NCBI GenBank assembly: GCA_016179875.1
Contig: JACPCH010000021.1
Location: 1-49,815 of the forward strand
From: Candidatus Rokuibacteriota bacterium
GTDB lineage: Bacteria; Methylomirabilota; Methylomirabilia; Rokubacteriales; CSP1-6
Length of the DNA: 49,815 nt
Reading direction: 5' to 3'
The first letter of the stretch is position 1. Every line of letters starts with the position of its first letter. Below, one piece after another: positions 3,075 through 40,306 of the stretch. The notes below the pieces were generated by a model. The model ran no database searches and was not told where the DNA came from. It saw only the letters and a list, made by a program, of their open reading frames with translations. Position numbers and translations under genes: made by a program.

Positions 3075-3862
3075 CAGGCGGCCTCGTCGCCGAGGTAGGC
3101 GCCGATCACGGCCGGATCCGTCCGCACCGCCTCCGGGCGCCCCTCCGCGAGCTTCTCGCCGTAGGAGAGCACGACGACCTCGTCGGACAGCCCGAGGACG
3201 AAGTCCATGTGGTGGTCCACCAGGAGGACCGTCGCGCCGGCGTCGCGGATCGTGCGGATGATCGCGGCCAGCCGCGCCTGCTCGTCGCGCCCGAGGCCGG
3301 CGCCCGGCTCGTCGAGCAGCAGGAGCTTCGGCTCGGCGGCCAGCGCGCGGCCGAGCTCGACGAGCCGCTGCTCGCCGTACGGGAGCGCCGCCGCCGGCTG
3401 GTCGGCCCGCGCGCCGAGGCCGAGGAGCGCCAGCACGGTCTGCGCCCGGAGCCGCAGCTCCGCCTCGTCCTGGCGCGCCGCGCGCGTGCGCAGGGCGCAG
3501 GCGGCCCAGCCCGCGCGGCCCCGCCGGTGACAGCCCACCAGCACGGTCTCGAGCACGCTCATCTCGCCGAAGAGCCGCACCAGCTGGAACGTGCGCGCGA
3601 TCCCGCGGGCCGCCACCGCGTGGGGCCGCCGCACGGGGAGCGGGATGCCCTCGAACAGCACCCGCCCCCGCGTCGGCGCCAGCGCCCCCGCGATCAGGTT
3701 GAAGATCGTCGTCTTGCCGGCGCCGTTCGGGCCGATCAGCGCCTTGATCTGGCCGGCGCGCACCGCGAAGTCCACGCCGCGCACCGCGGCGAGCCCGCCG
3801 AAGTCCTTGGCGAGGCCCTGCACCTCGAGGAGCGGCGCCGGGAGCCGGGCGCCGGCGGTCAC
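3074..3862 (-). CDS. livG: branched-chain-amino-acid-type ABC transporter ATP-binding protein (LivG-like)
   Basis: Same frame as ORF 3074..4753, trimmed to GTG 3862-3860, which overlaps the livM stop (GTGA). Motifs GPNGAGKTT, LPYGEQRLVELGRAL, LLLLDEPGAG. Confidence 0.85.
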   Translation of the reverse strand: MTAGARLPAPLLEVQGLAKDFGGLAAVRGVDFAVRAGQIKALIGPNGAGKTTIFNLIAGALAPTRGRVLFEGIPLPVRRPHAVAARGIARTFQLVRLFGEMSVLETVLVGCHRRGRAGWAACALRTRAARQDEAELRLRAQTVLALLGLGARADQPAAALPYGEQRLVELGRALAAEPKLLLLDEPGAGLGRDEQARLAAIIRTIRDAGATVLLVDHHMDFVLGLSDEVVVLSYGEKLAEGRPEAVRTDPAVIGAYLGDEAA

Positions 3863-4815
3863 GCCGCCCTCCGCCCGAGGGCGCTGAGGCCGCCCGGCAG
3901 GAAGATCATGAAGGCCATCAGGAGCAGGCCGAAGACCACGATCTCGTACTCGGCCGCGCCGTGGGACACGGTCAGCAGCGGCAGGAGCGCGCGGAGCGCC
4001 TCGACGAGGCCCACGACGAGCGCGGCCCCCAGCACGGCGCCCCAGAGGCTCGCCACCCCGCCGAGCACGACCATGACCACCAGCTCGATGGAGAACGCGA
4101 AGCCGAACGGCGACGGGTTGATGAACTTCAGATAGTGGGCGTAGAGGGCGCCCGCGAGCGCCGTGACGCCGCCGGCCACGGCGAAGACGCCGAGCTTGTA
4201 GCGGGCGGTGTCGACGCCGGCCGCCTCCGCCGCCGGCTCGCTGCCGTGGATCGCGCGCAGCGCGCGCCCGACCCGCGAGTCCACCAGGTTCCCGGCGAGG
4301 CCGAGCACCAGGAGGAGCGCGCCCCACGCCAGCCACGCCATGCGCCGGTCGCTGTCGAGCTGGACGCCGCCGATCGCGAGCGGCGGGATCCCGGTCAGCC
4401 CCGACGGGCCGCCGGTGACCGACGCCCAGTTGACGAGGACGTAGTAGAGGATGATGCCGAAGCCGAGCGTCGCCATCGCCAGCAGCAGGCCCGAGAGGCG
4501 GAAGATGGGCAGGCCGACCAGGAAGGCCGTCAGGGCGCCCGCGGCCACCGCCACCGCCATGGCGACCCAGGGGTTCCAGCCGTACGACGCCGTCAGCACG
4601 CCCGACACGTAGGCGCCGATCGCGTAGAACGCCGCCTGGCCGAGCGACACCTGGCCGGCGAAGCCCATCACGAGCGACAGGGCGAGCGCCGCGATGCCGT
4701 TGAGCGCGACGAAGACGAGCGCGCTCAGCACGTACGTGGAGCGCACCGTCCACGGCACCACGGCGGCGGCGAGCCCGACGGCCAGCAGCAGCACCCAGCG
4801 CTCGCGCGCGCTCAC
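3859..4815 (-). CDS. livM: ABC transporter permease (LivM-like)
   Basis: 318-aa polytopic hydrophobic protein between LivH-like and LivG-like genes. GQVSLGQAAF motif. Confidence 0.9.
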   Translation of the reverse strand: MSARERWVLLLAVGLAAAVVPWTVRSTYVLSALVFVALNGIAALALSLVMGFAGQVSLGQAAFYAIGAYVSGVLTASYGWNPWVAMAVAVAAGALTAFLVGLPIFRLSGLLLAMATLGFGIILYYVLVNWASVTGGPSGLTGIPPLAIGGVQLDSDRRMAWLAWGALLLVLGLAGNLVDSRVGRALRAIHGSEPAAEAAGVDTARYKLGVFAVAGGVTALAGALYAHYLKFINPSPFGFAFSIELVVMVVLGGVASLWGAVLGAALVVGLVEALRALLPLLTVSHGAAEYEIVVFGLLLMAFMIFLPGGLSALGRRAA

Positions 4816-4816
4816 C

Positions 4817-5701
4817 TCAGCCCTCCTCGACCGGCACGCGCCAGGGCAGCCAGCCGGCGACCTGGACCAGACAGAGCGCGATCAGGATGACGAACGCGAC
4901 GGCGTCCTTGTAGCCGGAGGACACGAGCCCGGCGGCGAAGGCCTCGAGGACGCCGAGGAGGATGCCGCCCGCGATCGCGCCGGGCGGGCTCACCAGGCCG
5001 CCGAGGACCGCGGCCACGAAGCCCTTGAGGCCGAGCATGAGCCCCATGTCGTAGGTGGCGTAGGTGATCGGCGCGATCACGGCGCCGGCGGTGGCGCCGA
5101 GGGCGCCGGAGAGCGCGAAGGCCAGCAGGGACATGCCGTCCACGCGGATGCCCATGAGGCGCGCCGCGCGCGGGTTCACCGCGCAGGCGCGCACCGCGGT
5201 CCCCGCGTAGGTCCGCGTGAAGAAGAACCAGAGGAGCGCGAACACGAGGGCGGCGACCGCGACCACCCAGAAGGCCTGGCGCACGACCAGCGCGCCCAGC
5301 AGCGCGACGGGCGGCCCCGCCGAGAACGGGGCCAGCGCGAACGGGTCGGTGCCCCACACGACCAGCGCGCCGCCGCGGAGGGCGATCGACGCGCCGATCG
5401 TCAGGATGAGGACGGCGAGCGCCGGCGCGCGCCGGAGCGGGTGGACGGCCACCCGCTCGAGCGCGGCGGCGAGCGCGGCGACGGCCGCGACGACGAGGAC
5501 GAAGGCGGGCAGCGGACCCAGCCCCAGGCCGGTGCCGGTGACCATGCCGAGCGCGCCGAGCATCACGAACTCGCCCTGGGCGAAGTTGATGATGCGCGTC
5601 ACGCTGTACACGATCACGAAGCCGAGCCCGATGAGGGCGTAGGCGCCCCCCACCACCAGGCCCGAGGCCAGGTACTGGGCCAGCTGCTCGCCGAGGGTCA
5701 T
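4817..5701 (-). CDS. livH: ABC transporter permease (LivH-like)
   Basis: 294-aa polytopic protein with INFAQGEFVMLGA motif, typical of LivH. Confidence 0.9.
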   Translation of the reverse strand: MTLGEQLAQYLASGLVVGGAYALIGLGFVIVYSVTRIINFAQGEFVMLGALGMVTGTGLGLGPLPAFVLVVAAVAALAAALERVAVHPLRRAPALAVLILTIGASIALRGGALVVWGTDPFALAPFSAGPPVALLGALVVRQAFWVVAVAALVFALLWFFFTRTYAGTAVRACAVNPRAARLMGIRVDGMSLLAFALSGALGATAGAVIAPITYATYDMGLMLGLKGFVAAVLGGLVSPPGAIAGGILLGVLEAFAAGLVSSGYKDAVAFVILIALCLVQVAGWLPWRVPVEEG

Positions 5702-5702
5702 G

Positions 5703-6854
5703 CTACCGGGCCGGGCGCCACTGCCCGTCCACGATCTGGATCATCGTGACGGCGCGCCGGTCGAGGCCGTTGTGGTCGGTCGGCGAAAAATCGAAGACGC
5801 CGGTGATCCCGACGAAGTTCTTCGTCTGCTCGAGGGCGGCGCGCACCCGGGCGCGGTCGGCGCCCGCCTTCTCGATCGCGGCCGCCACCAGCTTGATGGC
5901 GTCCCACGCGTGCCCGCCGAAGGTGTTGCGCGGGCCGAACTTCGCCTCGAAGTCCTTCGCGTAGGCGAGCAGCACGGGCTTCTGCGGGTCCTGGTCGGCC
6001 AGGTGCTCGGCCACCAGCAGCTTGCCGGCGGGGAACACCACGCCGTTGGCCCCCGGCCCGGCCAGGTCGATGTAGCGCTTGTTGCCGACGCCGTGGCTCT
6101 GGAAGAGCGGCATCTTGAGGCCGAGGTCGGCGAAGTTCTTGGTCGCGATGGACGCCGACGGCGGAATGGACCAGACGATGACGGCCTGGGGGTTCGCGAC
6201 CTTCACGCGCGTGAGCTGCGCCGTGATGTCCACGTCCTTCTGCCCGAACTTCTCGTTGGCGACGATGGTGAGGCCCGCCTTCTGGGCGGCCTTCTCGAAC
6301 GCGAGCCAGCCGAGCTGCCCGAAGGCGTAGTCCACGTTGAGCCAGCCGACCTTCGTCAGGCCCTTGGCCTTGAGGTGGTCCACCAGCACGCCGACGATCA
6401 GCGCGTCGCTCTGGGGCGTCTTGAACACCCACTTCCGCTCGGCGGCCGGCTCGACGATCTTGGCCGCGGCCGCGCAGGAGACGAGCGGCACCTCGGCCTT
6501 CTGCACGGTATCGAGGATGGCCAGCGAGGTGCCCGAGAGCGTGGTGCCGACGATCGCGACGACCTTGTCCTCGTCGATCAGCTTCTTGGCGGCGAGGACG
6601 GCCTTGGTCTCGTCGCTCGCGTCGTCGTAGATGACGATCTTGACGGGGCGCGCCTTGCCGTCGGGGCCCTTGATCCCGCCCTTGGCGTTGATCTCGGTCT
6701 CGAGCATGGCGGCGGTGTCCCGCTCGGGGATGCCGAGCGACGAGCCGGGGCCGGTGATGGAGAAGATGGCGCCGATCTTGTACACGTCCTGGGCGGCGGC
6801 CGTGCCCGGGACGGCGAGCAGGACGGCGAGGACGAAGGCGAAAAGTGTGCGCAT
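5703..6854 (-). CDS. periplasmic substrate-binding protein, LivK/LivJ (type I PBP) family
   Basis: 383 aa with signal peptide MRTLFAFVLAVLLAVPGTAAA, then YKIGAIFSITGPGSSLG, typical of Leu/Ile/Val-type binding proteins. The ligand may be an aromatic acid given the operon context. Confidence 0.9.
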   Translation of the reverse strand: MRTLFAFVLAVLLAVPGTAAAQDVYKIGAIFSITGPGSSLGIPERDTAAMLETEINAKGGIKGPDGKARPVKIVIYDDASDETKAVLAAKKLIDEDKVVAIVGTTLSGTSLAILDTVQKAEVPLVSCAAAAKIVEPAAERKWVFKTPQSDALIVGVLVDHLKAKGLTKVGWLNVDYAFGQLGWLAFEKAAQKAGLTIVANEKFGQKDVDITAQLTRVKVANPQAVIVWSIPPSASIATKNFADLGLKMPLFQSHGVGNKRYIDLAGPGANGVVFPAGKLLVAEHLADQDPQKPVLLAYAKDFEAKFGPRNTFGGHAWDAIKLVAAAIEKAGADRARVRAALEQTKNFVGITGVFDFSPTDHNGLDRRAVTMIQIVDGQWRPAR

Positions 6855-6869: not shown

Positions 6870-7325
6870 TTAGGACGTCACGATCTTTTCCATGTGGATC
6901 ATCGGCCCGTGGTGGAAGCCCAGGCGGGTGAAGAACTCCCGGACGTCCGCCTGGCCGAGGTCGATGAGGGTGGCGACCTTCCGGATCGCCCGGAGCTCCT
7001 GGCCGCCGCCGATGAAGCGCTCGACCAGCGCCTGCCCGACGCCCCGGCCGCGGTAGGCCGGGTCCACGCCGATCAGGTCGATCCAGGCGGTGGCGCCCGG
7101 CATGCCGAACTCCGACTCGGCCACCCAGCCGAACAGGAAGCCGACGAGCCGGCCGTCCATCTCGGCGACCGACGACATCCAGGGCGGCCGCAGCGCGGCG
7201 ATGTCCAGCCGCGTGCGCCAGTAGTCCTTGCGCGTCTGCGCGGTGAGCTTCTCGTCGATCCGTAGGATCGCGTCGAAGTCCGACGGCTCCACCGCCCGCA
7301 CGACCGCCGCGTCCTTCTTCGCCAT
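6870..7325 (-). CDS. GNAT family N-acetyltransferase
   Basis: 151 aa with acetyl-CoA binding motif GVDPAYRGRGVGQALV. Confidence 0.8.
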   Translation of the reverse strand: MAKKDAAVVRAVEPSDFDAILRIDEKLTAQTRKDYWRTRLDIAALRPPWMSSVAEMDGRLVGFLFGWVAESEFGMPGATAWIDLIGVDPAYRGRGVGQALVERFIGGGQELRAIRKVATLIDLGQADVREFFTRLGFHHGPMIHMEKIVTS

Positions 7326-7338: not shown

Positions 7339-8139
7339 TCAGGCCGCGGCGGCCGTGGTGAGCTTGCGGTAGCGCTGCAGCCCGAGGAGCGCCGCGCCGA
7401 GCGCGGCCGTGAGGTGCGGCTCCGCCGGCACGTTGACCGGGACGCCGAGCTTCTCGCGGAGCGCCACGATCATGCCCTCCTGGAGGGCGACCCCGCCGAT
7501 CAGCGTGACCTCGCCGTCGAGGCCGACGCGCTTCAGGAGCAGCAGCGCCCGGTCGGCGAGCGAGTTGTGGATGCCGCGCAGGATATTCTCGACGGCCACG
7601 CCCTCGGAGATGTGGTTGATGATCTCGGTCTCGGCCAGCACGGCGCAGACGCTCGAAATCGGCTGGGGCTTGCCCGCGGAGAGCGACATCGGGCCGACGT
7701 CGGCCAGCGTGACCTCGAGGTACTTGGCCGCGCGCTCCAGGAACCCGCCCGAGCCGGCGGCGCACTTCTCGTTCATGTGGAACTCCTTCACCTTGCCCCC
7801 GTCCCGGAGCTTGATGGCGCGCGAGCACTGGGCGCCGATGTCGAGCACGTAGCGCGTGCCCGGGAAGAGCGCCGCCGCCCCGCGCGCGCCGCAGGTGAGG
7901 TCGGTGATCTGGATGTCCCGGAAGGGCACCGCGTAGCGGCCGAGCCCCGTGGTGGCCAGGTAGCCCACGTCGTCGGGCCGGGCGCCGGCGTCGCCGACGG
8001 CCGCCTCCAGCACCTCGCGCGCCACCTTCTCGAAGTCCGCCTTGGTCTTCACGAGGCCGCGCCCGCGCACCGCGCCGGTCTCGTCCACCAGGATGCACTT
8101 GGTCGTTCCGGAGCCGATGTCGATTCCCGCGATCAGCAT
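7339..8139 (-). CDS. BcrA/BcrD/BadF/BadG/HgdC-family ATPase (benzoyl-CoA-reductase-type electron-activating subunit)
   Basis: 266 aa. Acetate/sugar-kinase fold start IAGIDIGSGTTK. Cluster-bridging Cys context NEKCAAGSGGFL and SSVCAVL. Confidence 0.85.
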   Translation of the reverse strand: MLIAGIDIGSGTTKCILVDETGAVRGRGLVKTKADFEKVAREVLEAAVGDAGARPDDVGYLATTGLGRYAVPFRDIQITDLTCGARGAAALFPGTRYVLDIGAQCSRAIKLRDGGKVKEFHMNEKCAAGSGGFLERAAKYLEVTLADVGPMSLSAGKPQPISSVCAVLAETEIINHISEGVAVENILRGIHNSLADRALLLLKRVGLDGEVTLIGGVALQEGMIVALREKLGVPVNVPAEPHLTAALGAALLGLQRYRKLTTAAAA

Positions 8140-8143
8140 GGCG

Positions 8144-8968
8144 TTAGCTCCTCGCCGCCCCGACGGCCACGGCCCCGCCCTGCGCCGTGGCCTGCGCGCG
8201 CTCCAGGGCGAACAGCGCGGCGCCGATGGCGCCCATGAAGTGTCCCTCGTCGCTCACGTTGAGGGGCGTGCCGAGCACCTCCTCGAGCGCCCGGACCATC
8301 CCGATGTTGCGCGACACACCGCCCGTGAAGGTGACCTCCTCCTCGACACCCACGCGCCGCACCAGCGACATCGTGCGGGTGGCGATGGCCTTGTGGACGC
8401 CGCCCAGGATATCCTCGATGGTCTTCTTCTGGGCGAGGTAGGACATGATGTCGGACTCGACGAAGACGGTGCAGACCGAGGTCAGGCGCACCGGGATCTT
8501 CGCCTGGAGCGCGAGCGGCCCGATCTCGTCGATGGAGACGCCCGTGACGTCGGCGGCCGCCGAGAGGAACCGCCCGGTGCCGGCGGCGCACTTGTCGTTC
8601 ATCGAGAAGTCGAGCACGGAGCCGTCCGCGCCGACCTTGATCGCCTTGGTGTCCTGGCCGCCCATGTCGAGGACGGTCCGCGTCGCCGGGAAGATGGACT
8701 GGGCGCCGCGCCCGTGGCAGGTGATCTCGGTGATCTGGGCGTCGCCGAACGTCACCTTGTAGCGCCCGTAGCCGGTGCCCACGACGTAGCCCACCGCGGT
8801 CCGCGGCAGCCCCGCGTCCTCCAATGCCTTGACGAAGGCGCTCTCGCCCGCCTTGGTGACGTTCGCGCCCGTCGCGATCAGGGACCGGCCGACGATCCGG
8901 CGCGCTTCGTCCACGATCACCGCCTTGGTCTGGGTCGAGCCGACGTCGACGCCCGCACCGTAGGTCAT
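8144..8968 (-). CDS. second, distinct BcrA/BcrD-family ATPase subunit
   Basis: Same frame as ORF 8144..9568, trimmed to ATG 8968-8966 ([15 protein letters not shown]...). Motifs [12 protein letters not shown] and TSVCTVF. The start overlaps the stop of the membrane subunit gene (ATGA). Confidence 0.85.
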
Positions 8969-9852
8969 GACGATCTCCTCTCGAGACGCAGAGTCGTGAG
9001 CGTGACCGGCCGGAGCTGGCCGGCCGTGAGGATGAGCGCGGTCTTCGCGAGCGCCTGGCCCGCGATCATGAGGGCGCCGGCCAGCGTGGCGGCGGGGACG
9101 GCGACGCCGGGCAGCGCCAGGGCCAGGGCCGCGCACAGGAACGGCGCGAGGTAGCCCCCGCCCACGATCGCCACCGCCGTCGGGCCCTCGCGGAGCGCCG
9201 CGGTCGCACGGGCGAAGCTCGCCTCGCGCGACCAGGTCACGTACGCGAGCCACGCGATCGCCCCGAGGACGAGCGTCACCAGCGTGGCGCCGAGGAGCGC
9301 CCCGCCCACCGGCCGGCCCGCCACGACCTCGACGAGCGCCAGGAGCCCGGCCCCGGAGACGGCCGCCGAGGCGAGGAACACGACCGGCATCGCGGGCACG
9401 TCCCAGGCCGCGATGCCGCGCGCGTGCCGCACGATCAGGCCCTGCGCCGCCGCGAGGAGCCCGGCCGCCGCGAGCGCGGCGACGCGGAGCGCGACCCCGG
9501 GGGCGACGAACTCGGCGGCGCAGCAGGCGGCGAAGGCGCCCCCGAGCCAGAGCTCGCGCGACATCCACGACGTGCCGACGCGCCGGAGCACGCGCGGCCC
9601 GCGCAGCGGCCGGCCCGCCTCGGCGGCGACGGCGACGAAGCCCGCCAGCACCAGCGCCGGGCCGAGCCAGGCCGCGAGCGTCACCGCGGGCCCGCCGCCG
9701 AAGCGGGCGGCCAGGACCGCCGCCGCGTAGAGCCCGGCGCCCAGGCCGCCGCAGACGAAATTCACGACCGCCGGCGGGCCCCAGAGCCGCTGGCGCACCG
9801 GCGGAATCAGCTCGACCCCTTCGCGCGTCGTCGCCATCGCCGTGGTCTCCAC
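8965..9852 (-). CDS. polytopic membrane anchor of a complex iron-sulfur molybdoenzyme (NrfD/DmsC-like)
   Basis: 295 aa, almost entirely hydrophobic helices, directly downstream of the Mo and FeS subunits. Family assignment rests on position and hydrophobicity only. Confidence 0.65.
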
Positions 9853-9853
9853 G

Positions 9854-10489
9854 TCAGTCGGCCAGGTAGAACACGGAGGGCTGGGTGCCGACCTCGGGCA
9901 TGAGCGCCACCGCCCGGCCGTCCGCGACGAGCTGCGCGACGCGGCTCGTCGGGTCCTCGAGGTCGCCGAAGACGATCGCGCCGGCGATGCAGGCCAGCGC
10001 GCACATCGGCGTCGCGTCGGGATCCACGCCGGGGACGAGCCCCTGGGCCCGGCCCGCGTCCACGCGCTCCTTGCAGAACGTGCACTTCGTCATCACGCCG
10101 TGGCGCCCGGCGTGGCCGTTGGCCTGCTCGGACGGCGTCGGCGCGTCGAAGTAGCCCCGGGCCTCGTGGACCAGGTGCCGCGCGTGGTACGGGCAGGCGA
10201 CCGCGCAGTAGCCGCACCCGACGCAGAGCTCGTACTCGACGTGGACGATGCCATCAGCGCGCCGCTGCGAGGCGCCGGTGGGACAGACGGGAACGCACGG
10301 AGGCTCGGCGCAGTGCATGCACTGCATGGGCAGGAAGACGCGCCGGACGTTCGGGTACTCGCCGATCTCGCAATCGGCCACGAACCGCCACTGGGTGCCC
10401 GCCGGCAGGCCGTGCTCCTGCATGCAGGCGATCGTGCAGGTCTGGCAGCCCACGCAGCGCCGGACGTCGATCACCATCCCCCAGCGCAT
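9854..10489 (-). CDS. 4Fe-4S ferredoxin-type electron-transfer subunit (DmsB/PsrB/NrfC family)
   Basis: Cys groups CVGCQTCTIAC, CMHCAEPPCVPVCP, CVGCGYCAVACP and CTFC. I prefer ATG 10489 (GAGGAG 6 nt upstream) over the ORF-track GTG at 10492. Confidence 0.9.
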   Translation of the reverse strand: MRWGMVIDVRRCVGCQTCTIACMQEHGLPAGTQWRFVADCEIGEYPNVRRVFLPMQCMHCAEPPCVPVCPTGASQRRADGIVHVEYELCVGCGYCAVACPYHARHLVHEARGYFDAPTPSEQANGHAGRHGVMTKCTFCKERVDAGRAQGLVPGVDPDATPMCALACIAGAIVFGDLEDPTSRVAQLVADGRAVALMPEVGTQPSVFYLAD

Positions 10490-10508
10490 CACCGGCTCCT
10501 CTTGAACT

Positions 10509-10545
10509 GGGCACGGGCACCCGGGCTATCGCCACGCCCGTGCCC
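10509..10545 (-). other. perfect 10-bp stem hairpin in the only long intra-operon gap
   Basis: GGGCACGGGC (10509-10518) and GCCCGTGCCC (10536-10545) with a 17-nt loop, between the Mo subunit stop (10602) and the FeS subunit start (10489). Confidence 0.5.
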
Positions 10546-10601
10546 CGCCGCGATCACCCGCTGCGATCGCTCGTCCACCCGATCAGAGCCGCAACCCCGC
10601 A

Positions 10602-13334
10602 TCAGAGTCTCCGCACTGCCACGGGGACGAGGTCGGCGCCGCTGCCGGTCGCGTCGGTGAGCGCCAGATCCATGCTCGAGACCTCGTTCAGGCTGGGCAT
10701 GCCGAGGTCGCGCGCGAACGGCGTGGCCCAGTGGCCGAACTGCTGGAGCGCGACGGCGACGTCGGGCCGCACGCCCTCGCGCAGGATCGCGCGCCCCTGC
10801 GTCCGTCCCGTCGGCGACTCGATCTCGACCAGGTCGCCGTCGGCGATGCCGAGCTTCTCGGCGGCGCGCCGGTTGAGCATGACGCCGAAGTGCCCCTTCA
10901 CGTTCTTCGCGACGTCGGCCAGGATCGGGAGCGACACGTTGGAGCCCCAGGAGTACTGCATGCTCCGGCTCGTCAGCAGCCAGAACGGGAACTCGCGCGC
11001 GTCGCGCCCGTGGGCCGCGGCGGTGCCCCGCCAGATCTCCGGGAAGTCCTTCCACGTCGGCAGCGGCTGGTACTCGTCGAGCTGGACGTCCCACCACTTG
11101 ATGCCGCGCTCGTGCAGGCGCGCCGCCAGCTCCTCGCCCATGCGCTGGATCCGCTCCTGGTAGGGCAGCTCGTAGCGCAGCCCCTGGGCGCGCATCGTCG
11201 TGTGCAGGAAATAGTTCTTCGTCGCGAACGGCACGAACCAGGCGCCGTGCCGCTTGAACCACTCGAGATCGTGCTCCTCCCGGCCGCCGGACAGCGAGCG
11301 CGTCGCCGCGCGGCATACCCGGTCCCAGATCTCCGCGGCGACCGGCAGCCGCCCGTTCTTGATCGAGTAGTCGTAGCCGTCGCCCGCGAGCGGCACCGTG
11401 GTGCCCGAGCCCCGGTTCACCGCCTGGAGGTACTCGTCGAGGAGCCCCACGCGGGCGGCCAGCTCGGTGGCGACGTCGGTGAGGTCACGCGTGTCGTACG
11501 GCGGCGCCGTCACCGGCTGGCGCAGCGCCCAGCCGGAGTGCTGCCAGTACTGCTCGGTGTACTTGGTCCCGCCGATGCGGTAGAGCTGGAGCGACTCGAG
11601 ATCGGTCGCCTCGGGCAGGAGCAGGTCCGCGTACCAGTTGGTCTCGTCCTGCGTGTAGGCGAAGGCCGCGACGAACGGGAAGCGCTCGAGCTCCCGCTCG
11701 ATCCGCCCCGTCTCCCAGTTCGAGATCGCGGGGTTCGTCCGGTAGATGATCCAGACGTCGGGCAGGGTCGGCGCCGGCCAGTGCTCCGGCGCATCCTCCA
11801 GGAAGAGCCACGGCAGGTGCGCCGGGCCGAGCGCCGCCGACCACGGCGAGTCGTCGGCCAGCGGCACCAGCGTGCGGTAGGCGTTCCTGACGTGTGGGGA
11901 CGCCTGCCACTTCTCCCGCGACGTCGGGTTGAGCGGCTGCTCCATGAAGCCGTCGGGGCCCGGCTTGACCGAGTCGAGCCGGTTCTGGGCCGGCCGGTTC
12001 AGGCGCACGGTCGTCCCGAGGATGCCGCCGGGGACCTCGAGCGCCCCGACGAGCGCCGCCAGCAGCGTGCGGGCCCAGCAGCACTCGTAGCCGCCCCAGC
12101 CGTTGGTCACCGTCTTGCCGAGCAGCACGGCGACGGGCCGGTGGGGATAGCTGACGCCGTCGATCTCGATCGTGGCCCCGACGCGCGCCGCCGCGAGGTA
12201 CTCGCCGGCGATGCGGCGGATCGTCGCGGCCGGCACGTCGGCGATCTCCGCCGCCCACTCGGGCGTGTAGGACCGCACGTGCTCGACGAGGCGCTCGAAG
12301 GCCGGGCGCACGCGGTCGCTGACGCTCCGGCGGGCGCCGTCGGCCCCGACCTCGACGCCGGAGGCGATGTACTCGCCGACCAGCGCCGGACGCGCGCACG
12401 CCGGGTCGTCGAACGGCACCGCGCGCTCGCGGTCGAGGTCCCACACCAGCGGCTTGCCGCTCCCGGGGTCGCGCAGGTAGTAGCCGCCGGGGCCGACGAG
12501 GTAGGGCGAGCCCGTCATCCGCTCGAGGAACGGCACGTCGCACACGTGGCGCCAGTCGTGCTCGATCAGGATCGCGTGGAGCAGCGCGAAGAGCACGGCG
12601 GCGTCGGTCTTCGGACGGACCGGCACCCACTCACCGGCGCCGGCGCCGGTGATCGAGAGATGCGGCTCGAGCTGCACCCAGCGGAGCCCGCGCGCGCGCG
12701 CCTCGGCGTGGCGCCAGACGCCGGTCACGCCGCCCGAGGCGTCGCCGTTGTAGCCGAAGGACAGCACGTAGTCGCAGCGCGGCACGTCGGCGGCGACGGT
12801 GAAGGCGCGGTGCCAGAACTCGCCGTAGAGGTGCTCGGAGTGGTAGCACTTCACGCCCTGACCGCTGCCGATGCCCTGGTCCAGCGGCCCCCACGCCGCC
12901 AGGAGCGCCGCGAACGTGCCGAGGTAGGCCGGCGCGATGCCGCCGGAGCCGAACGTCACCGCCAGGCGCGGGTAGCCCGCCGCGTCCACCAGCCCCGCCG
13001 CGCGGAGCGCGCGGAGCTTGCCGGCCAGGAGGTCGAGCGCCGCGTCCCACGACACCGGCGCCCAGCCCGGGTCCTCCCCGCGCGCCTTCCGCGGATTGGT
13101 GCGGACCATCGGCGTCTTGATGCGCGCGGGGTTGTAGAGCTTCTGGACGAGGCCGTAGGCGCGCACGCACACCTTGCCGCCCGCCGGGTGCTCGGCGGCG
13201 ACGTCGCTGTTCGGCTCGACGCCGACCGCGACGCCGTCCTTGACGATGACCTTCAGGAGGTCCGGGCCCGCCACGCACTGGTAGCAGTAGACCGGCACCT
13301 TCTCGATGGTCGGCGTGGCCGCGGATTTGTTCAC
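10602..13334 (-). CDS. molybdopterin (bis-MGD) oxidoreductase catalytic subunit, DMSO-reductase superfamily, no Tat signal (PadB-like candidate)
   Basis: Same frame as ORF 10602..14570, trimmed to GTG 13334-13332, which overlaps the upstream stop (GTGA). 910 aa. N-terminus VNKSAATPTIEKVPVYCYQCVAGPD...GGKVCVRAYG has a CxxC...C cluster motif and no RR/hydrophobic signal. Molybdopterin-oxidoreductase-like throughout, with a C-terminal beta-barrel-like GDLVEIESPTGR. Confidence 0.9.
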   Translation of the reverse strand: MNKSAATPTIEKVPVYCYQCVAGPDLLKVIVKDGVAVGVEPNSDVAAEHPAGGKVCVRAYGLVQKLYNPARIKTPMVRTNPRKARGEDPGWAPVSWDAALDLLAGKLRALRAAGLVDAAGYPRLAVTFGSGGIAPAYLGTFAALLAAWGPLDQGIGSGQGVKCYHSEHLYGEFWHRAFTVAADVPRCDYVLSFGYNGDASGGVTGVWRHAEARARGLRWVQLEPHLSITGAGAGEWVPVRPKTDAAVLFALLHAILIEHDWRHVCDVPFLERMTGSPYLVGPGGYYLRDPGSGKPLVWDLDRERAVPFDDPACARPALVGEYIASGVEVGADGARRSVSDRVRPAFERLVEHVRSYTPEWAAEIADVPAATIRRIAGEYLAAARVGATIEIDGVSYPHRPVAVLLGKTVTNGWGGYECCWARTLLAALVGALEVPGGILGTTVRLNRPAQNRLDSVKPGPDGFMEQPLNPTSREKWQASPHVRNAYRTLVPLADDSPWSAALGPAHLPWLFLEDAPEHWPAPTLPDVWIIYRTNPAISNWETGRIERELERFPFVAAFAYTQDETNWYADLLLPEATDLESLQLYRIGGTKYTEQYWQHSGWALRQPVTAPPYDTRDLTDVATELAARVGLLDEYLQAVNRGSGTTVPLAGDGYDYSIKNGRLPVAAEIWDRVCRAATRSLSGGREEHDLEWFKRHGAWFVPFATKNYFLHTTMRAQGLRYELPYQERIQRMGEELAARLHERGIKWWDVQLDEYQPLPTWKDFPEIWRGTAAAHGRDAREFPFWLLTSRSMQYSWGSNVSLPILADVAKNVKGHFGVMLNRRAAEKLGIADGDLVEIESPTGRTQGRAILREGVRPDVAVALQQFGHWATPFARDLGMPSLNEVSSMDLALTDATGSGADLVPVAVRRL

Positions 13335-14641
13335 CGGCTCGCCTCGGCCGGCGGGGCCCCAGCCCCGCGACGGCCTGCGGCTCGCACGACCACCTTCTTG
13401 TGCTCCAGGGCTTCGAAGAACGCGTCGATGCGGTTCTTGAGCTGCGCCTCGGCGTAGTAGCGTGGGTCCTCGAGGTCGGACTCCACGAGGAGCGTCGACA
13501 CGCCGAGCTCGCGCGTGAAGTAGTCGCGCATGTCCCCCTGCCCGGCCGAGAACAGACGGCACGACTTGATCGAATGGATGACGAGCGCGTCGGCGTCCCA
13601 TTCCTCCACGTAGCGCCGGATCTGCTGGTAGCGCGTCGTGATCGACCGGTTGGTGAGGTTCTCGCGCAGCATCTGCTCGGCGATGGACTCCAGCGGCCGC
13701 GCCGGGTCGTGACGGAAGCCCCACTCCCAGATGCCGCCCACCGTCGAGTACGTGGACTGCACGGCCACCGCGCCCCACTTGGCGAACAGGTTGCGGAAGT
13801 TCTTGTAGTAGGGATACGGCGGCGGGCCCTCGACGACGGTGCGGAACCGCTCCTCGGACAGGGGCCCGAGCCCCTGGGCCACCAGCCCCTCGAACTCGGC
13901 CACCGCCACGTCGAAGAAGTCGGCGACTTCCTTCGTGCCGCGGAGCACGTTGATCGGCCCCATCAGGTTGATCGAGTCGAAGTAGGAGTCGAAGGGCGCC
14001 GGCTTGTGCTTGCACAGGTGCTTGCAGCGCGAGTAGCCCTCCTCCGCCCGGATCGAGTAGCCGATGATCTCCCGGAGCTCGTCGATGTCGAACTTCTCCC
14101 CGGTCACGCCCTCGCAGAGGGCGATGAGCTCGCGGAGCTGGCCGACCACGTACTGGATGTCGGCCGGGCTCGGCTCGGCGGCGCGCAGGAACGGCACGTC
14201 GAGCATGAAGAGCTTGGCCCCGCTGATGTCGGCCAGGTGCTCGAACCACTTCACGTACACGTTGCAGCCGACGTAGTTGCAGACGATCAGGTTCGGGAAC
14301 GGCATGGGCTTGCCGGGCCCCATGCCCCCTTCCAGGAACAGCCCGATGTCGGCCTTCACGTAGGCGCAGTTGTCGCTCGAGTACCCCGCCTGCTCCGCCT
14401 TGAGGATGAGCGGCAGCGACTTGTGGCGGATCGCGTTCTGGAGCGCCGTGACCTCCGGGAACATGGGCAGGATGTGGCAGGCCCGCAGCAGCTCGACGCA
14501 GTTGCCCGAGATCATGATCGCGCCCGTGGGCCGCCCCTCGGCCTCGGCCCGGCCGAGCTCGCCCATCCACGCCGACATGAGCCGGCGCGAGTCCTCGTGG
14601 ACCTTGCCCTGGTACTGCCGTTCCGTCACCTGAGCCGGCAT
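13331..14641 (-). CDS. benzoyl-CoA reductase subunit B-like (BcrB/BadE/BzdO; 2-hydroxyacyl-CoA dehydratase superfamily)
   Basis: Same frame as ORF 13331..14722, trimmed to ATG 14641 (GGGAGGA upstream). 436 aa, MPAQVTERQYQGKVHEDSRRLMSAWM...SIKSCRLFSAGQGDM...LLVESDLEDPRYY, with length and motifs as in BcrB-type subunits. Confidence 0.85.
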   Translation of the reverse strand: MPAQVTERQYQGKVHEDSRRLMSAWMGELGRAEAEGRPTGAIMISGNCVELLRACHILPMFPEVTALQNAIRHKSLPLILKAEQAGYSSDNCAYVKADIGLFLEGGMGPGKPMPFPNLIVCNYVGCNVYVKWFEHLADISGAKLFMLDVPFLRAAEPSPADIQYVVGQLRELIALCEGVTGEKFDIDELREIIGYSIRAEEGYSRCKHLCKHKPAPFDSYFDSINLMGPINVLRGTKEVADFFDVAVAEFEGLVAQGLGPLSEERFRTVVEGPPPYPYYKNFRNLFAKWGAVAVQSTYSTVGGIWEWGFRHDPARPLESIAEQMLRENLTNRSITTRYQQIRRYVEEWDADALVIHSIKSCRLFSAGQGDMRDYFTRELGVSTLLVESDLEDPRYYAEAQLKNRIDAFFEALEHKKVVVRAAGRRGAGAPPAEASR

Positions 14642-14658
14642 GGCGTCGTCCTCCCGCC

Positions 14659-15813
14659 CTAGTCGAAGAGCATCGATTCGACGAAGGTCTCGATCTCGTT
14701 GCGCGTGCGCTCGAACGTCCACATCTTCTCCTCGAACTCGACGATCATGTGCGGGATGCCCGCGCGCTCGAGCCCCTGCTTCATCAGGACGTAGTCGAAC
14801 AGGGCGGGCTCGCAGAACTTGGCCGGCATGAAGACGACGGCCTGCGCGTTTGCGCGCCGGACCTTCTCGATGAGCCCCGTCGAGCGGTGCTCGCGGCCCT
14901 CGTGACGCACCGACGACGGCACCGCCTGGTTCACGTAGGCCGCGCCCAGGCGCTCGAAGGGATCGCCGTCGCCCGCGACGTCCGCGGTGAACCAGCGCCA
15001 GCCCAGCATCAGGTCGTCCTCGACGACGTAGCAGCCGGCCTCTTCCAGCACCTCGAGCAGGCCGAGCGGCGGCTGCTCGCAGAACGCCCCCTCGACGACC
15101 ACGCGCAGGCGGTCGCGGGGCCGCGCGTCGCGCAGCCGGAGCCCGGCCAGCAGGTCGTCCAGCCAGCCGATCGCGTCCTCGGGCGGCGCCAGCGTCGCCG
15201 CCCGCAGGGTGACGTACAGATCCGTGGTCGAGAGCCGCTGGGGCTCGGCGATGCGGAAGGCGTAGAGCGCGCGGACGCGCGCGCGCAGCGCGTTGTAGGT
15301 CTCGATGGACTTCGCGAGCGCGGGCTCCGTCACCTTGAGCCCGAACGCGCCCTCGAAGCCCTGCGTGAGCCGGCGCAACTCGCTGGCCGCGTAGCCGGCG
15401 ACGCCCGGCGACGTCGAGTTCTGCGGCAGGTGCAGATACTCGACGAATACGTCCGGGAAGTTGCGGTGGTAGATCGAGCTGAGGTTGCGCGCGACGTCAC
15501 AGATGTTCGAGAACACGAACCCGTCGATGCCCTTGACGATGTCCTGGAAGCCGAGCTCGAGGGTGGACTTCGCGATCGAGCACACGAAGGACTGGAACCG
15601 CGCGTCGGCGTGCGTGAGCTCGACCGAGGTGCCGCCGCCCAGGAGCGACAGCGGGAGCATGCCCGCCGCGTGGATGAGCTCGGCCGGGGCCCACACCGGG
15701 TACGCCGCGACGGCGCGCCCGCCCGGATGGGCGGCCTTCCACCGCTCGGCGACGGCGCCGAGGGGCCGGGCGACGAGCTCGCGGCACTGGTCGAGGATCT
15801 GCTCAGGCGTCAT
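14659..15813 (-). CDS. benzoyl-CoA reductase subunit C-like (BcrC/BadD/BzdN)
   Basis: 384 aa, 2-hydroxyglutaryl-CoA dehydratase D-component fold, motifs FQSFVCSIAKS and FMPAKFCEP. Paired with the B-like subunit. Confidence 0.85.
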   Translation of the reverse strand: MTPEQILDQCRELVARPLGAVAERWKAAHPGGRAVAAYPVWAPAELIHAAGMLPLSLLGGGTSVELTHADARFQSFVCSIAKSTLELGFQDIVKGIDGFVFSNICDVARNLSSIYHRNFPDVFVEYLHLPQNSTSPGVAGYAASELRRLTQGFEGAFGLKVTEPALAKSIETYNALRARVRALYAFRIAEPQRLSTTDLYVTLRAATLAPPEDAIGWLDDLLAGLRLRDARPRDRLRVVVEGAFCEQPPLGLLEVLEEAGCYVVEDDLMLGWRWFTADVAGDGDPFERLGAAYVNQAVPSSVRHEGREHRSTGLIEKVRRANAQAVVFMPAKFCEPALFDYVLMKQGLERAGIPHMIVEFEEKMWTFERTRNEIETFVESMLFD

Positions 15814-16396
15814 GGCGCGCCTCCGCTGGTTCGAGGAAGCCGTAGAGGAAGAGGGAGCCGACCTGGGCCGCGAGCGCGCGCGCGTCGTCGCGCGAGCGGA
15901 CGAACGGCCGGGTCGCGATGCCGTTCAGCATGCCGAGGAGGAGATTGGTCGCCGACAGGAGCTCGTCGCCCGACCGTCCGTGCGGGTCGAGCTCGCGCAG
16001 GACCCCGAGCCCGCGCTGGACGTAGTCGCCGCGCTTGGCCGCGACGTCCGAGCGGCGCGGCTCGGGCAGGAGCTCCCAGTCGCGGTTGATGACCTTGAGC
16101 GCCGGACCGTGGCGGAAGCCGAAGTCGAGGTGCGTCTGGATCAGGGCGAGGAGCTTCAGCTCCGGGGTGCGCGCCCGCGTCAGGGCCTCGTCGAGCGCGC
16201 CGATGAGCGTGTCGAGCGACCGGTCGAGGACCAGGAAGAGCAGCTCATCCTTGCCGCCGACGTAATGGTAGAGGCCGGCGAGCGAGAGGCCGGCGGCGCG
16301 GGCGATCTCGCGGATCGAGGCCTGGTGGAAGCCGCGCCGCGCGATGGCCTCGGTCGCCGCCTGGAGGATCTCGTTGTATCGCTCCTCGATCGCCAC
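15803..16396 (-). CDS. TetR/AcrR family transcriptional regulator
   Basis: HTH FHQASIREIARAAGLSLAGLYHYVGGKDELL. I start it at GTG 16396 (TAGGAGG 6 nt upstream), not the ORF-track start at 16417. The stop overlaps the bcrC-like start by 11 nt. Confidence 0.9.
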   Translation of the reverse strand: MAIEERYNEILQAATEAIARRGFHQASIREIARAAGLSLAGLYHYVGGKDELLFLVLDRSLDTLIGALDEALTRARTPELKLLALIQTHLDFGFRHGPALKVINRDWELLPEPRRSDVAAKRGDYVQRGLGVLRELDPHGRSGDELLSATNLLLGMLNGIATRPFVRSRDDARALAAQVGSLFLYGFLEPAEARHDA

Positions 16397-16521: not shown

Positions 16522-19005
16522 TCAAACCGGGCGCCGGACACCGGCCAGGGTCAGGAGCCCTACGCCGGCGGCCGCGGCCAGGGCCAGGGCCCAGTCGGCC
16601 GGGTGGAGCGGCTCGAGGTGGAGGAGGCGCGCGAGCGCCGGAGTCTGGATGAGCGCCCCGGAGAGCAGCCCGCCGCCGGCCGCGACGAGCCACGCCATCC
16701 GCGTGCGCAGACGCGAGAGGGCGGCGGTCAGGGCGGCGCCCGACAGCGTCAACACCGCCAGGGCCATCGCGCGGCCGTGCTCCAGGCGGCCGGCCTCGCC
16801 GAGGCTGGCCAGATAGCCCCCGGTGACGAGGACGGTGATCAGCGCGCCGACGGCGGCGATGGCCACCCAGTCGCGCCGTGAGAAGAAGCGCCCCGCGCGC
16901 CCGGCCGCCGGCCCGATCCGTCCCCCGGCCGGGAACTCCTGGAAGACGAGCAGCGCCGTCGGGTGGATCAGCAGCTCGAGCCACACGATGTGGGTGGGCA
17001 GGTAGAGGAGCGGGTAGCCGGCGAGCGGGATGAACGCGGCGGTGACGACGAGCGGGATGTGGATCATCAGGAGGTACTGGAAGGCGCGGCGGAGGTTCTC
17101 GAAGAGCTGCCGCCCCTCGCCGACGGCGCGGACGATCGTCGCGAAGTCGTCGTCGAGGAGCACGATCGCCGCCACCTCCCGCGCGCTCCGGGTGCCGCGC
17201 TCGCCCATGGCGATGCCGACGTCCGCGGCCTGGAGCGCCGGCACGTCGTTCACGCCGTCGCCGGTGACCGCGACGATCTCGCGCGCGTCCTGGAGGGCCC
17301 GCACGAGGGCGAGCTTCTGCGCGGGCGCCGCGCGCGCGATCACGTCCACGCCGCGGAGGCCCGCCCCCTCCCCGCGCGCGACGCGCCCGGCGATCTCGTC
17401 GCCGGCGATCACCGCGGGCGCGCCGCCCCCGAGCCCCACCTCGCGGGCCACCGCCAGCGCCGTCAGCGGATGGTCGCCCGTCACCATGATGGTGTGGATG
17501 CCGGCCTCGCGGCAGCGCGCGACGGCGCGGGCCACGCCCGCGCGCACCGGATCCTCGAACGCGAGGAGGCCGGCGAAGCGGTACTCGTGCGTGAGCTCGT
17601 CGGCGGGCTCGCCCGCCCACACCGCCGCGTCGAGGGGCCGCCACGCGCACGCGATGACCTTGTGGCCCTCGGCCGCCAGGTCGGTCATCCGCCGCTCCCA
17701 CGCGCCGCGGTCCGCCGGGGCGAGGGCGCACATGTCGAGCACGACCTCGGCCGCGCCCTTGGCCGCGGCGACGAGCGCGCCGTCGGCGTCGCGGACGATC
17801 GCCGTCTCGCGCTTGCGCCCCTCCGTGAACGGGAACGTCGCCAGGAGCTCGACGGCGCCGCCCGGCGCGCCGTCGCCGGCGGCGCGAAGGATCGAGGCGT
17901 CGAGCGGGTCGCCGCTCTCCTCGCGCGACGCGAGCGCGGCGACGCGCAGGAGGCGCGCGTCGTCGAGCCCGGGCGCCGGGAGGAGGTGGGTCAGGTGCAG
18001 GCGCCCCTCCGTGATCGTGCCCGTCTTGTCCGAGCAGATGCAGGTCAGGCGGCCGATATTTTCGACGGAGACCGCGCGGCGGACGAGCGCCTGGCGGCGC
18101 GCCAGACGGTACACGCCCACGCCGAGGAAGAACGTGAAGACCACCGGGAACTCCTCGGGGAGCGCGGCCGAGGCGAGCGTCACCGCGCTCACCAGCGCGT
18201 CGAGCCAGCCGTGTCCCTGGCGGAGGCGGGCCGCCGCCATGATCAGGCACAGCACGCCGGCGGCGGCGACGAGGACGGTCACGAGACTCCGGATCGCCGC
18301 CTGGAGCGGCGTGAGGGCGTGGGCGCCGCGCACCGCCGAGCGCACGATCTCGCCGTAGAGCGTCTCACCGCCGGTCCACGCCACCCGGAGCGCCGCGGCG
18401 CCCGTCAGGAGGCGCGTGCCGGCGAAGCCCCAGTGCTCGTGCTCGACGATCGGCTCGTCGCCGTCAGGCGGCGGCGCGCGGAGCGCCAGCTTGGCGACCG
18501 GGTACGCCTCGCCGGTCAGCGCCGACTCGTCGGCTTGCAGCTCCCGGCCGGCGACGATCACCCCGTCCGCCGGGAACGCCTCGCCCGTGGCGACCAGGAC
18601 CAGGTCGCCCGGCACGAGGTCGGCCGCCGCGACCTCGCGGGCGGCGCCGTCGCGCACCACGCGCGCCCGCGACGCGAGCCGGCTGGCGAGATCCTCGGTG
18701 GAGGCCTGGGTGCGGCGATGGAGGACCACGTCCATCCCGGCGAGCGGCAGGATGGCGACGACCAGCGTCAGCGCCTCCACGCCCTGGCCCACCGCGGCGT
18801 AGAGCGCGCTGGTGCCGGCCAGGAACCAGAGCATCGGGTCCTTCGCCGTGTCCCGCACGAGGTCCCGCCAGGCCGCGGGCGGGCGCTCGACGATGTCGTT
18901 GCGCCCGAAGCGGCGGCGCCGCTCGTCGGCCGCGGCGTCGCCGAGCCCCTGCTCCGCGAGCCACGCCTCGGGCAGCCGCGCGATCGGAAGCGGCCGGCGC
19001 AGCAT
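16522..19005 (-). CDS. cation-translocating P-type ATPase (P2/P3-like, not heavy-metal type)
   Basis: 827 aa with TGE (ALTGEAYP), phosphorylation site DKTGTIT and hinge TGDGVNDVPAL. The membrane motif is PEEFP (PEGL-like), not CPx. Confidence 0.9.
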   Translation of the reverse strand: MLRRPLPIARLPEAWLAEQGLGDAAADERRRRFGRNDIVERPPAAWRDLVRDTAKDPMLWFLAGTSALYAAVGQGVEALTLVVAILPLAGMDVVLHRRTQASTEDLASRLASRARVVRDGAAREVAAADLVPGDLVLVATGEAFPADGVIVAGRELQADESALTGEAYPVAKLALRAPPPDGDEPIVEHEHWGFAGTRLLTGAAALRVAWTGGETLYGEIVRSAVRGAHALTPLQAAIRSLVTVLVAAAGVLCLIMAAARLRQGHGWLDALVSAVTLASAALPEEFPVVFTFFLGVGVYRLARRQALVRRAVSVENIGRLTCICSDKTGTITEGRLHLTHLLPAPGLDDARLLRVAALASREESGDPLDASILRAAGDGAPGGAVELLATFPFTEGRKRETAIVRDADGALVAAAKGAAEVVLDMCALAPADRGAWERRMTDLAAEGHKVIACAWRPLDAAVWAGEPADELTHEYRFAGLLAFEDPVRAGVARAVARCREAGIHTIMVTGDHPLTALAVAREVGLGGGAPAVIAGDEIAGRVARGEGAGLRGVDVIARAAPAQKLALVRALQDAREIVAVTGDGVNDVPALQAADVGIAMGERGTRSAREVAAIVLLDDDFATIVRAVGEGRQLFENLRRAFQYLLMIHIPLVVTAAFIPLAGYPLLYLPTHIVWLELLIHPTALLVFQEFPAGGRIGPAAGRAGRFFSRRDWVAIAAVGALITVLVTGGYLASLGEAGRLEHGRAMALAVLTLSGAALTAALSRLRTRMAWLVAAGGGLLSGALIQTPALARLLHLEPLHPADWALALAAAAGVGLLTLAGVRRPV

Positions 19006-19014
19006 GGACGGGGC

Positions 19015-19155
19015 TCAGTGTGCCATGCCGCGGACCAGGTCCTCCGCCCAGGCGAGCCCGGCGAGCGCGCGGCGCGCGTCGGCGCGCGGCCACGCGTATT
19101 CGAAGATGACGGCGCAGTCCCCCGGGTGGAGCGCGCTGGCCGGCGGGACGGTCAC
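19015..19155 (-). CDS. hypothetical 46-aa protein, translationally coupled
   Basis: GTG 19155-19153 overlaps the dehydrogenase stop (GTGA), and the stop lies 9 nt before the ATPase start. Peptide VTVPPASALHPGDCAVIFEYAWPRADARRALAGLAWAEDLVRGMAH. No recognisable family. Confidence 0.3.
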   Translation of the reverse strand: MTVPPASALHPGDCAVIFEYAWPRADARRALAGLAWAEDLVRGMAH

Positions 19156-20417: not shown

Positions 20418-20419
20418 AG

Positions 20420-23909: not shown

Positions 23910-23916
23910 GGCGCCC

Positions 23917-40300: not shown

Positions 40301-40306
40301 AAGAGT

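Follow-up and report, generated by a model that had tools for sequence, protein, structure and literature searches.

The conversion of phenylacetyl-coenzyme A (CoA) through phenylglyoxylate to benzoyl-CoA is treated as an established route in PMC9765128, and the known degraders covered in PMC4453571 carry the pad genes (padJ, padBCD, padEFGHI) and the bcr genes (bcrCBAD, dch, had, oah) as two separate clusters. PadBCD, the phenylacetyl-CoA:acceptor oxidoreductase, was purified from the genus Thauera (Rhee and Fuchs 1999, as cited in both papers). Here we describe a locus of Candidatus Rokuibacteriota bacterium (assembly GCA_016179875.1, contig JACPCH010000021.1) in which three PadBCD-like genes stand within the genes of a divergent class I benzoyl-CoA reductase (BCR). 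The window, meaning the whole stretch of DNA that was analysed, comprises 49,815 nucleotides (nt) with a G+C content of about 73%. The locus holds the same functions as the pad and bcr clusters which PMC4453571 gives for Aromatoleum, Thauera and Sedimenticola, namely a ligase, PadBCD, a ring reductase and a hydratase, but what forms two separate clusters there is joined here, with padBCD placed between the bcrB-like and the bcrA-like gene. We consider it likely that the block forms a single catabolic operon through which phenylacetate, or a close arylacetate, is used anaerobically by way of benzoyl-CoA. Most probably, then, the locus is a known anaerobic pathway in unusually dense packing and not a new machine.

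Codon-position G+C scoring gave a single clear gene set, in which all genes of the block lie on the minus strand in the order C-B-Mo-FeS-anchor-A-D, the last two being the ATPases A1 and A2:

14659–15813, minus strand: C-like gene, 384 amino acids (aa), Pfam HGD-D
13331–14641, minus strand: B-like gene, 436 aa, Pfam HGD-D
10602–13334, minus strand: PadB-like molybdenum (Mo) subunit of the bis(molybdopterin guanine dinucleotide) (bis-MGD) type, 910 aa, Pfam Molybdopterin and Molydop_binding
9854–10492, minus strand: PadC-like iron-sulfur (FeS) subunit, 212 aa, with 17 Cys in four ferredoxin-type groups, Fer4_11 and related Pfam matches
8965–9852, minus strand: PadD-like polytopic membrane anchor, 295 aa, with weak NrfD/DmsC matches
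8144–8968, minus strand: ATPase 1 (A1), BcrA/BzdQ-like, 274 aa, BcrAD_BadFG at 212 bits
7339–8139, minus strand: ATPase 2 (A2), BcrD-like, 266 aa, BcrAD_BadFG

The junction between the B-like gene and the Mo subunit gene is a GTGA stop/start overlap, and the stop of the anchor gene overlaps the start of ATPase 1 by 4 nt (ATGA), both read directly from the sequence. All seven genes, their order and both overlaps were found exactly as a preliminary description of this DNA had given them, and the operon block extends on both sides beyond the stretch which that description covered. The remaining junctions measure, in order, −11 (between a TetR-family regulator gene and the C-like gene), 17, 109 (Mo/FeS), 1, 4, 13 and 15 nt. 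Terminator-like or promoter-like sites inside the block did not rise above chance, and the block would be read as a single transcript. The Mo/FeS gap of 109 nt (10493–10601) contains a perfect GC-rich hairpin of 10 base pairs (10509–10545), while the corresponding junction in most relatives measures −4 to 25 nt. A structured RNA or riboswitch in this gap was considered and rejected, as Rfam gave no match and the z-score of the fold (−1.66) lacks significance.

In regard to the four outer genes, both Pfam and NCBIfam searches find the full subunit set of a class I BCR, two HGD-D proteins and two non-identical BcrAD_BadFG ATPases, as in BcrCBAD, BadDEFG and MbdONQP. The HGD-D family covers 2-hydroxyacyl-CoA dehydratases as well, so Pfam cannot tell the two kinds of enzyme apart, and a dehydratase with its activator, in place of a ring reductase, has to be weighed as an explanation of the B-like and C-like genes, all the more as HadB and HadC are their second-best matches. 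Curated NCBIfam models can make the distinction. The C-like protein scores 308 bits with BcrC (TIGR02263, cutoff 421) against 181 with HadC (cutoff 700), and the B-like protein 316 bits with BcrB (TIGR02260, cutoff 487) against 162 with HadB (cutoff 750). ATPase 1 is matched best by BcrA (TIGR02259, 201 bits, cutoff 578) and BzdQ (179 bits), while the best BCR-subunit match of ATPase 2 is BcrD (TIGR02261, 186 bits, cutoff 313). Among solved structures, the best matches are subunits of 3-methylbenzoyl-CoA reductase (MbdONQP, PDB 9g87), with 267 bits for the C-like protein on MbdN (HadC 164, BzdN 88) and 249 bits for the B-like protein on MbdO (HadB 140, BzdO 100). The Bcr and Mbd scores are thus nearly double those of the dehydratase proteins, which bears out the earlier view of the outer genes as reductase-like. 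HadBC/HadI and HgdAB/HgdC do share with the window proteins the superfamily, the fold, the three-Cys [4Fe-4S] site and an ATP-driven electron-injecting ATPase; however, they have one gene for a homodimeric activator, where the window has two distinct ATPase genes.

The two ATPases, only 45% identical to each other and both kept in other phyla, appear to be old paralogs, as expected for the heterodimer of a reductase, and not recent duplicates of a dehydratase activator; the heterodimer had been proposed in the preliminary description. Likewise, the cluster cysteines are retained. Cys92 and Cys361 of the B-like protein align with Cys95 and Cys380 of BzdO, and Cys126 falls within one position of BzdO Cys128, the three BzdO residues being those that hold the catalytic [4Fe-4S] cluster, with a Glu nearby (PMC11971306). 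Glu63 of the B-like protein is invariant, and the equivalent of BzdO His131 could not be placed from the alignment. In the C-like protein, Cys78, Cys105, Cys255 and Cys336 align with Cys of MbdN.

Gene surroundings in other phyla point the same way. In an Acidobacteriaceae locus (L071) whose B-like protein is 58% identical to that of the window, the three genes that directly follow C-B-A-D are Had (429 bits, cutoff 339), Oah (550 bits, cutoff 464) and one that matches Dch with 262 bits, just short of the cutoff of 292. Had, Oah and Dch are the signature enzymes downstream of benzoyl-CoA reduction. With this neighbourhood, the nearly twofold score difference and the two ATPases kept across phyla, we regard a dehydratase as extremely unlikely. 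By these comparisons, the C, B, A1 and A2 proteins are members of a divergent subfamily of class I BCR, predicted to carry out the ATP-dependent two-electron reduction of benzoyl-CoA to a cyclic dienoyl-CoA. The order C-B-A-D is the class I order once the insert is removed. The set differs from the described enzymes in its distance (B is 37% identical to MbdO), in lacking a ferredoxin gene in the cluster, in being split by the three padBCD-like genes, and in forming a separate subfamily found in Rokubacteria and in metagenome-assembled genomes (MAGs) of Planctomycetota, Acidobacteriota, Binatia and Chloroflexi.

Several further observations concern this subfamily. It occurs widely among MAGs of Acidobacteriota, Binatia, Chloroflexi and Deltaproteobacteria (L071:12928–15918 and loci L049–L089). 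A second contig of Rokubacteria GWC2_70_16 (L024:1113–4599) holds a lone B-like paralog, 81% identical, with no C-like, Mo or ATPase genes nearby, directly after genes for a TetR regulator and the large and B12-binding small subunits of an acyl-CoA mutase. In many Planctomycetota/Phycisphaerae loci and one of Vicinamibacteraceae (L047), an extra, distant activator-type ATPase (37–45% identical) lies a few kilobases (kb) upstream of the contiguous C-B-A-D, upstream of position 10001 (L032, L035–L039, L041, L044, L045 and L047), and several of these loci have a distant HGD-D-like gene (25–30% identical) upstream of C-B-A-D as well.

The three genes in the middle of the block were placed by the relatives of the Mo subunit. 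Family models alone let it resemble a generic Psr/Phs/Arr relative, and its best solved-structure relatives are ArrA and PsrA; no solved structure of PadBCD was found in this search. A large protein collection, on the other hand, yielded 120 close homologs with 80–97% identity, of which those named by organism are mostly from Methylomirabilota/Rokubacteria MAGs and most of those sourced from JGI are annotated as phenylacetyl-CoA:acceptor oxidoreductase. In an exhaustive HMMER search of the representatives of 50%-identity clusters, the nearest non-self cluster is that of Thauera, including T. aminoaromatica, with 59% identity and 1212 bits over residues 6–910. The FeS subunit is 55% identical to Thauera PadC, and the anchor, with about eight hydrophobic helices in a hydropathy analysis, matches the N-terminal half of Thauera PadD with 37% identity over 164 residues (E = 2e-10). 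By curated models the FeS subunit is DsrO/TtrB-like, the match beginning past the signal region of those models; it is predicted to bind four [4Fe-4S] clusters. Two Thauera contigs (L006/L007) encode an FdhD-like protein, PadB (917 aa), PadC (215 aa) and PadD (301 aa) with a PaaX regulator adjoining, and their padB, padC and padD genes follow each other in the same order as in the window; no reductase (bcr) genes were seen near padBCD on these contigs.

On sequence comparison, the three-gene molybdoenzyme is therefore an ortholog of PadBCD. It agrees with PadBCD of Thauera aromatica and Aromatoleum in the order of bis-MGD subunit, four-cluster FeS subunit and anchor, in its N-terminal cysteine motif and in a linked gene for a putative phenylacetate-CoA ligase. 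In the alignment of the PadB family this motif reads C-x2-C-x2-G-P...C and contains the only three Cys of such a motif that are invariant across the whole family; C17, C20, C56, C163 and H168 (numbering of the window protein) are invariant, and Cys163 and His168, shared with the Thauera proteins, may belong to the Mo ligand region. Respiratory enzymes such as PsrABC, PhsABC, TtrABC and ArrAB have the same three-part Mo/FeS/NrfD architecture, but they are exported by the twin-arginine translocation (Tat) pathway, face the periplasm, reduce inorganic substrates and carry a four-Cys FS0 motif, whereas the Mo subunit of the window and Thauera PadB lack both a Tat signal and the third Cys of the FS0 motif. 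No Tat signal was detected in the Mo and FeS subunits of the window, nor in the PadB proteins of Thauera and Syntrophales. Consequently, the active site is expected to face the cytoplasm, as a CoA-ester substrate requires, and the enzyme would be suited to such substrates. More distant PadB homologs (37–42% identity) have RRRF motifs, and a Tat motif is present in the distant homologs P0126 and P0128. The predicted activity is the oxidation of phenylacetyl-CoA to phenylglyoxylate with quinone or a dye as acceptor. The window differs from Thauera in that its padBCD-like genes lie inside the reductase operon, under TetR instead of beside PaaX, with neither an adjacent FdhD-like gene nor PadEFGHI. 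A SoeABC-like sulfite dehydrogenase working with a desulfonating reductase was also considered, and was rejected once the homologs of the Mo subunit proved to be PadB.

A further PadB homolog, 50% identical, occurs in Syntrophales (L008/L009:1336–7647) in the gene order UbiD-family decarboxylase, Mo subunit, FeS subunit, Pyr_redox_2 flavoprotein, without a membrane anchor; it may be a soluble variant for another substrate.

In order to follow the arrangement beyond a single contig, one genome per GTDB species was scanned with an alignment of the B-like protein, which gave 80 loci, and the window proteins were mapped on these by tblastn. The interleaved block was found in all 22 Methylomirabilota/Rokubacteria loci in which the contig continues past the B-like gene (B-like proteins 76–89% identical), mostly in separate species-level genomes, with the common order TetR, C, B, Mo, FeS, anchor, A1, A2 and usually a GNAT gene. 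In 11 of 14 loci the anchor and A1 genes still overlap by 4 nt, and A1 and A2 lie 2–5 nt apart. A local rearrangement or a mis-assembly of one contig, which would make the order an accident of this DNA, is refuted by its recurrence in independent NCBI, JGI and ENA assemblies, and its probability is practically nil. The reductase genes of the outgroups form a contiguous C-B-A1-A2 without Mo genes in 55 loci out of 55, in agreement with the earlier statement that class I BCR genes normally lie together. The outgroup B-like proteins are 64–71% identical in Planctomycetota/Phycisphaerae and 55–61% in Acidobacteriota, Binatia, Chloroflexi and Deltaproteobacteria. A neighbour-joining tree built from the B subunits places the Rokubacteria in one monophyletic clade, whose sister is the Planctomycetota clade with contiguous genes. 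A link between PadB and BCR outside Rokubacteria was not seen for the PadB homologs of Thauera, Syntrophales, Chloroflexi and Thermodesulfobacteriota. Since all Rokubacteria loci that reach far enough are interleaved and all sister-clade loci are contiguous, the simplest history would be that an ordinary C-B-A-D operon took up a padBCD cassette once, between its B-like and A-like genes. Our literature search found no paper describing an interleaved padBCD-bcr order, as the preliminary description had supposed.

Two loci of this group carry other labels, one as a Bathyarchaeia archaeon (L004, GCA_035506595.1) and one as a Binatia bacterium (L015). Their B-like proteins are 84–86% identical to that of the window, and they are probably mis-binned Rokubacteria contigs and not cases of transfer.

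Such tight and conserved packing, with the ATGA overlap of anchor and ATPase retained in most loci and the block intact wherever the contig permits, could also be read physically. The molybdoenzyme and the reductase would then form one complex, or the membrane module would be a dedicated wire from the quinone pool or membrane potential to the reductase, for example by driving electrons uphill into the cluster of the ATPases as a substitute for ferredoxin. The neighbourhood itself lends this some colour, as its sole poly-ferredoxin is PadC and a ferredoxin gene is not found close by. However, the molybdoenzyme is the ortholog of an enzyme with a substrate of its own, which stands alone in Thauera and other lineages, and the sister clades have the same reductase subfamily without any Mo genes. 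The C, B, A1 and A2 proteins show no clade-specific insertions or deletions against the outgroups, and PadB, PadC and PadD are roughly as long as their Thauera counterparts. Energetics oppose it as well. PadBCD makes the precursor of benzoyl-CoA, and its electrons enter the quinone pool instead of being drawn from there, at potentials much too high to drive ring reduction; for the window enzyme, this direction of electron flow is the expected one. We therefore hold a complex or wire to be very unlikely. The more specific proposal of a membrane-bound supercomplex of PadBCD and the ATP-dependent reductase in Rokubacteria, with electrons passing via PadC or by reverse flow through PadD driven by the proton motive force, is highly improbable; if true, it would mean that arylacetate oxidation or the quinone pool powers ring reduction without a soluble ferredoxin. 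Lineage-specific docking insertions were sought in the four reductase subunits and none was found. PadC as a replacement of a lost ferredoxin was likewise rejected, because most outgroups also have no ferredoxin gene within 10 kb, so PadC has not taken its place.

The preliminary description is thus modified in its interpretation. The reductase module stands as BCR-like, while the molybdoenzyme, seen there as a quinone-facing module that feeds or docks to the reductase, proved to be an ortholog of the known PadBCD, and nothing was found in support of the view that tight coupling suggests a joint complex or an electron route from the membrane, each module occurring alone in its nearest relatives. 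The interleaved order can instead be explained by co-expression of consecutive pathway steps, and a joint complex is not needed for it.

The genes around the block, together with those found in relatives, bear on the pathway that it would serve:

15803–16396, minus strand: TetR-family regulator, Pfam TetR_N and TetR_C_24, with an alternative GTG start at 16417; its stop overlaps the start of the C-like gene by 11 nt
6870–7325, minus strand: GNAT acetyltransferase, Acetyltransf_1, directly after ATPase 2
2340–6854, minus strand: Liv-type ABC importer of five genes, Pfam Peripla_BP_6, BPD_transp_2 and ABC_tran, consisting of a binding protein (5703–6854), two permeases (4817–5701 and 3859–4815) and two ATPases (3074–3862 and 2340–3074)
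1030–2343, minus strand: PaaK-type phenylacetate-CoA ligase, top match TIGR02155 with 554 bits (cutoff 646), AMP-binding_C_2
263–1033, minus strand: Dch-like enoyl-CoA hydratase, top match TIGR03189 (cyclohexa-1,5-dienecarbonyl-CoA hydratase) with 176 bits (cutoff 292)
1–252, minus strand: short-chain dehydrogenase gene cut off by the window edge, N-terminal part, with the Rossmann motif TGGGRGIG

Of 26 related loci, 24 have the TetR gene immediately upstream of the C-like gene. The same ABC set is found downstream of the block in L002/L003, L023 and L030, and the order of PaaK, enoyl-CoA hydratase and short-chain dehydrogenase recurs in L014; the short-chain dehydrogenase of L002 scores 312 bits on BadH. 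Rokubacteria flanks furthermore contain a gene of the benzoate-CoA ligase family (693 bits, cutoff 375), a BadH-like short-chain dehydrogenase, Dch-like hydratases and an acyl-CoA dehydrogenase resembling cyclohexanecarboxyl-CoA dehydrogenase. In five or six relatives (among them L011, L016, L018, L027 and L028), the block is directly followed by a POR-type 2-oxoacid oxidoreductase. Its gamma and alpha subunits are joined by a fusion of an NAD(P)-binding GltD-like protein with a delta ferredoxin. Three relatives have a 4HBT thioesterase next to TetR, and this enzyme could hydrolyse phenylglyoxylyl-CoA.

From these parts a route can be proposed. The acid would be imported by the Liv-type ABC system and activated to phenylacetyl-CoA by the PaaK-type ligase. 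The membrane-anchored PadBCD homolog, facing the cytoplasm, would then carry out the four-electron oxidation of the alpha-methylene group to phenylglyoxylyl-CoA or phenylglyoxylate, with electrons passing to the quinone pool, and phenylglyoxylate would undergo oxidative decarboxylation to benzoyl-CoA by a 2-oxoacid oxidoreductase, encoded beside the block in some relatives and presumably elsewhere in this genome. The class I reductase, with its four subunits (C-like, B-like and the two ATPases), would dearomatise benzoyl-CoA at the expense of ATP, and hydratase and dehydrogenase enzymes would carry the pathway onward. In evolutionary terms, the padBCD cassette would have landed once between the B-like and A-like genes, and the interleaved order may have been kept as it puts the peripheral and central steps on one TetR-controlled transcript.

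A number of observations weigh against this pathway. None of the four reductase subunits reaches its BcrA, BcrB, BcrC or BcrD equivalog cutoff, and the PaaK-type ligase (554 against 646) and the Dch-like hydratase (176 against 292) fall below their NCBIfam equivalog cutoffs too, for which reason the substrates named here are predicted ones. Phenylglyoxylate oxidoreductase genes (PadEFGHI) are absent from the window, and the POR-type genes of the relatives stay below the PadE and PadG cutoffs (143 against 300 and 270 against 700), scoring no better there than with generic PorC and PorA. In a scan of 89 loci for small open reading frames rich in Cys, no ferredoxin gene was found within 10 kb in Rokubacteria or in most outgroup loci.

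Some of these points would also suit a different substrate. The B/C/A/D enzyme could act on a product of Pad, such as phenylglyoxylyl-CoA or mandelyl-CoA, by ketyl-radical chemistry and not on benzoyl-CoA, in which case the two enzymes would be consecutive steps and a separate phenylglyoxylate oxidoreductase would be unnecessary. Interleaving would then bring both enzymes together, the lack of PadEFGHI in the window would be accounted for, and the distance of B from MbdO and the sub-cutoff scores of B and C would be less surprising. However, orthologs in the sister clades, 55–71% identical, occur without Pad genes and beside Had, Oah and Dch, and the reductase subunits show none of the clade-specific insertions or deletions mentioned above. 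The benzoate-CoA ligase family, BadH-like, Dch-like and cyclohexanecarboxyl-CoA-dehydrogenase-like genes of the Rokubacteria flanks are typical of a benzoyl-CoA pathway, and the POR-type oxidoreductase after the block in several relatives would fill the very step that this alternative dispenses with. Taken together, action on the Pad product appears unlikely, and phenylacetate use through benzoyl-CoA is retained as the probable function of the block.

Some neighbouring features stand apart from this question. The GNAT gene is kept after the second ATPase in 13 related loci, and copies 44–47% identical occur in some outgroup BCR clusters, so that it accompanies the reductase subfamily not only in Rokubacteria but also in certain outgroups (L056, L058 and L064). 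It may resemble badL of Rhodopseudomonas palustris. A PAS-LuxR regulator is encoded at 24775–25413, and 14 relatives have a member of the same family immediately upstream of TetR; what separates this regulator from the block in the window is a P-type ATPase gene, a 3-hydroxyisobutyrate-dehydrogenase-like gene and an operon of Rrf2 with an aa3-type cytochrome oxidase (16522–24767). A second, unrelated molybdoenzyme of the xanthine-dehydrogenase family is found at 37397–40381, with a MoCoBD subunit of 788 aa and a [2Fe-2S] subunit of 158 aa, followed by a tRNA gene at 40310–40381.

Both enzyme systems of the locus are of known kinds, and on present evidence no new enzyme mechanism is revealed; the identities and the gene history given here rest on computation. 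New are the interleaved operon found across a whole lineage, the assignment of the pathway to Rokubacteria and the recognition, in several uncultured soil phyla, of a class I reductase subfamily that has diverged from the described ones. The operon offers a clean case of a catabolic cassette that entered a different operon and became fixed in that lineage, and its compact, presumably co-regulated gene sets lend themselves to heterologous study of PadBCD. Furthermore, a divergent subfamily of ATP-dependent BCR would be widespread in uncultured soil phyla, namely Acidobacteriota, Planctomycetota, Binatia and Chloroflexi. For Rokubacteria, abundant uncultured bacteria of soil and groundwater, the locus would provide a coherent way of breaking down phenylacetate and benzoate without oxygen.

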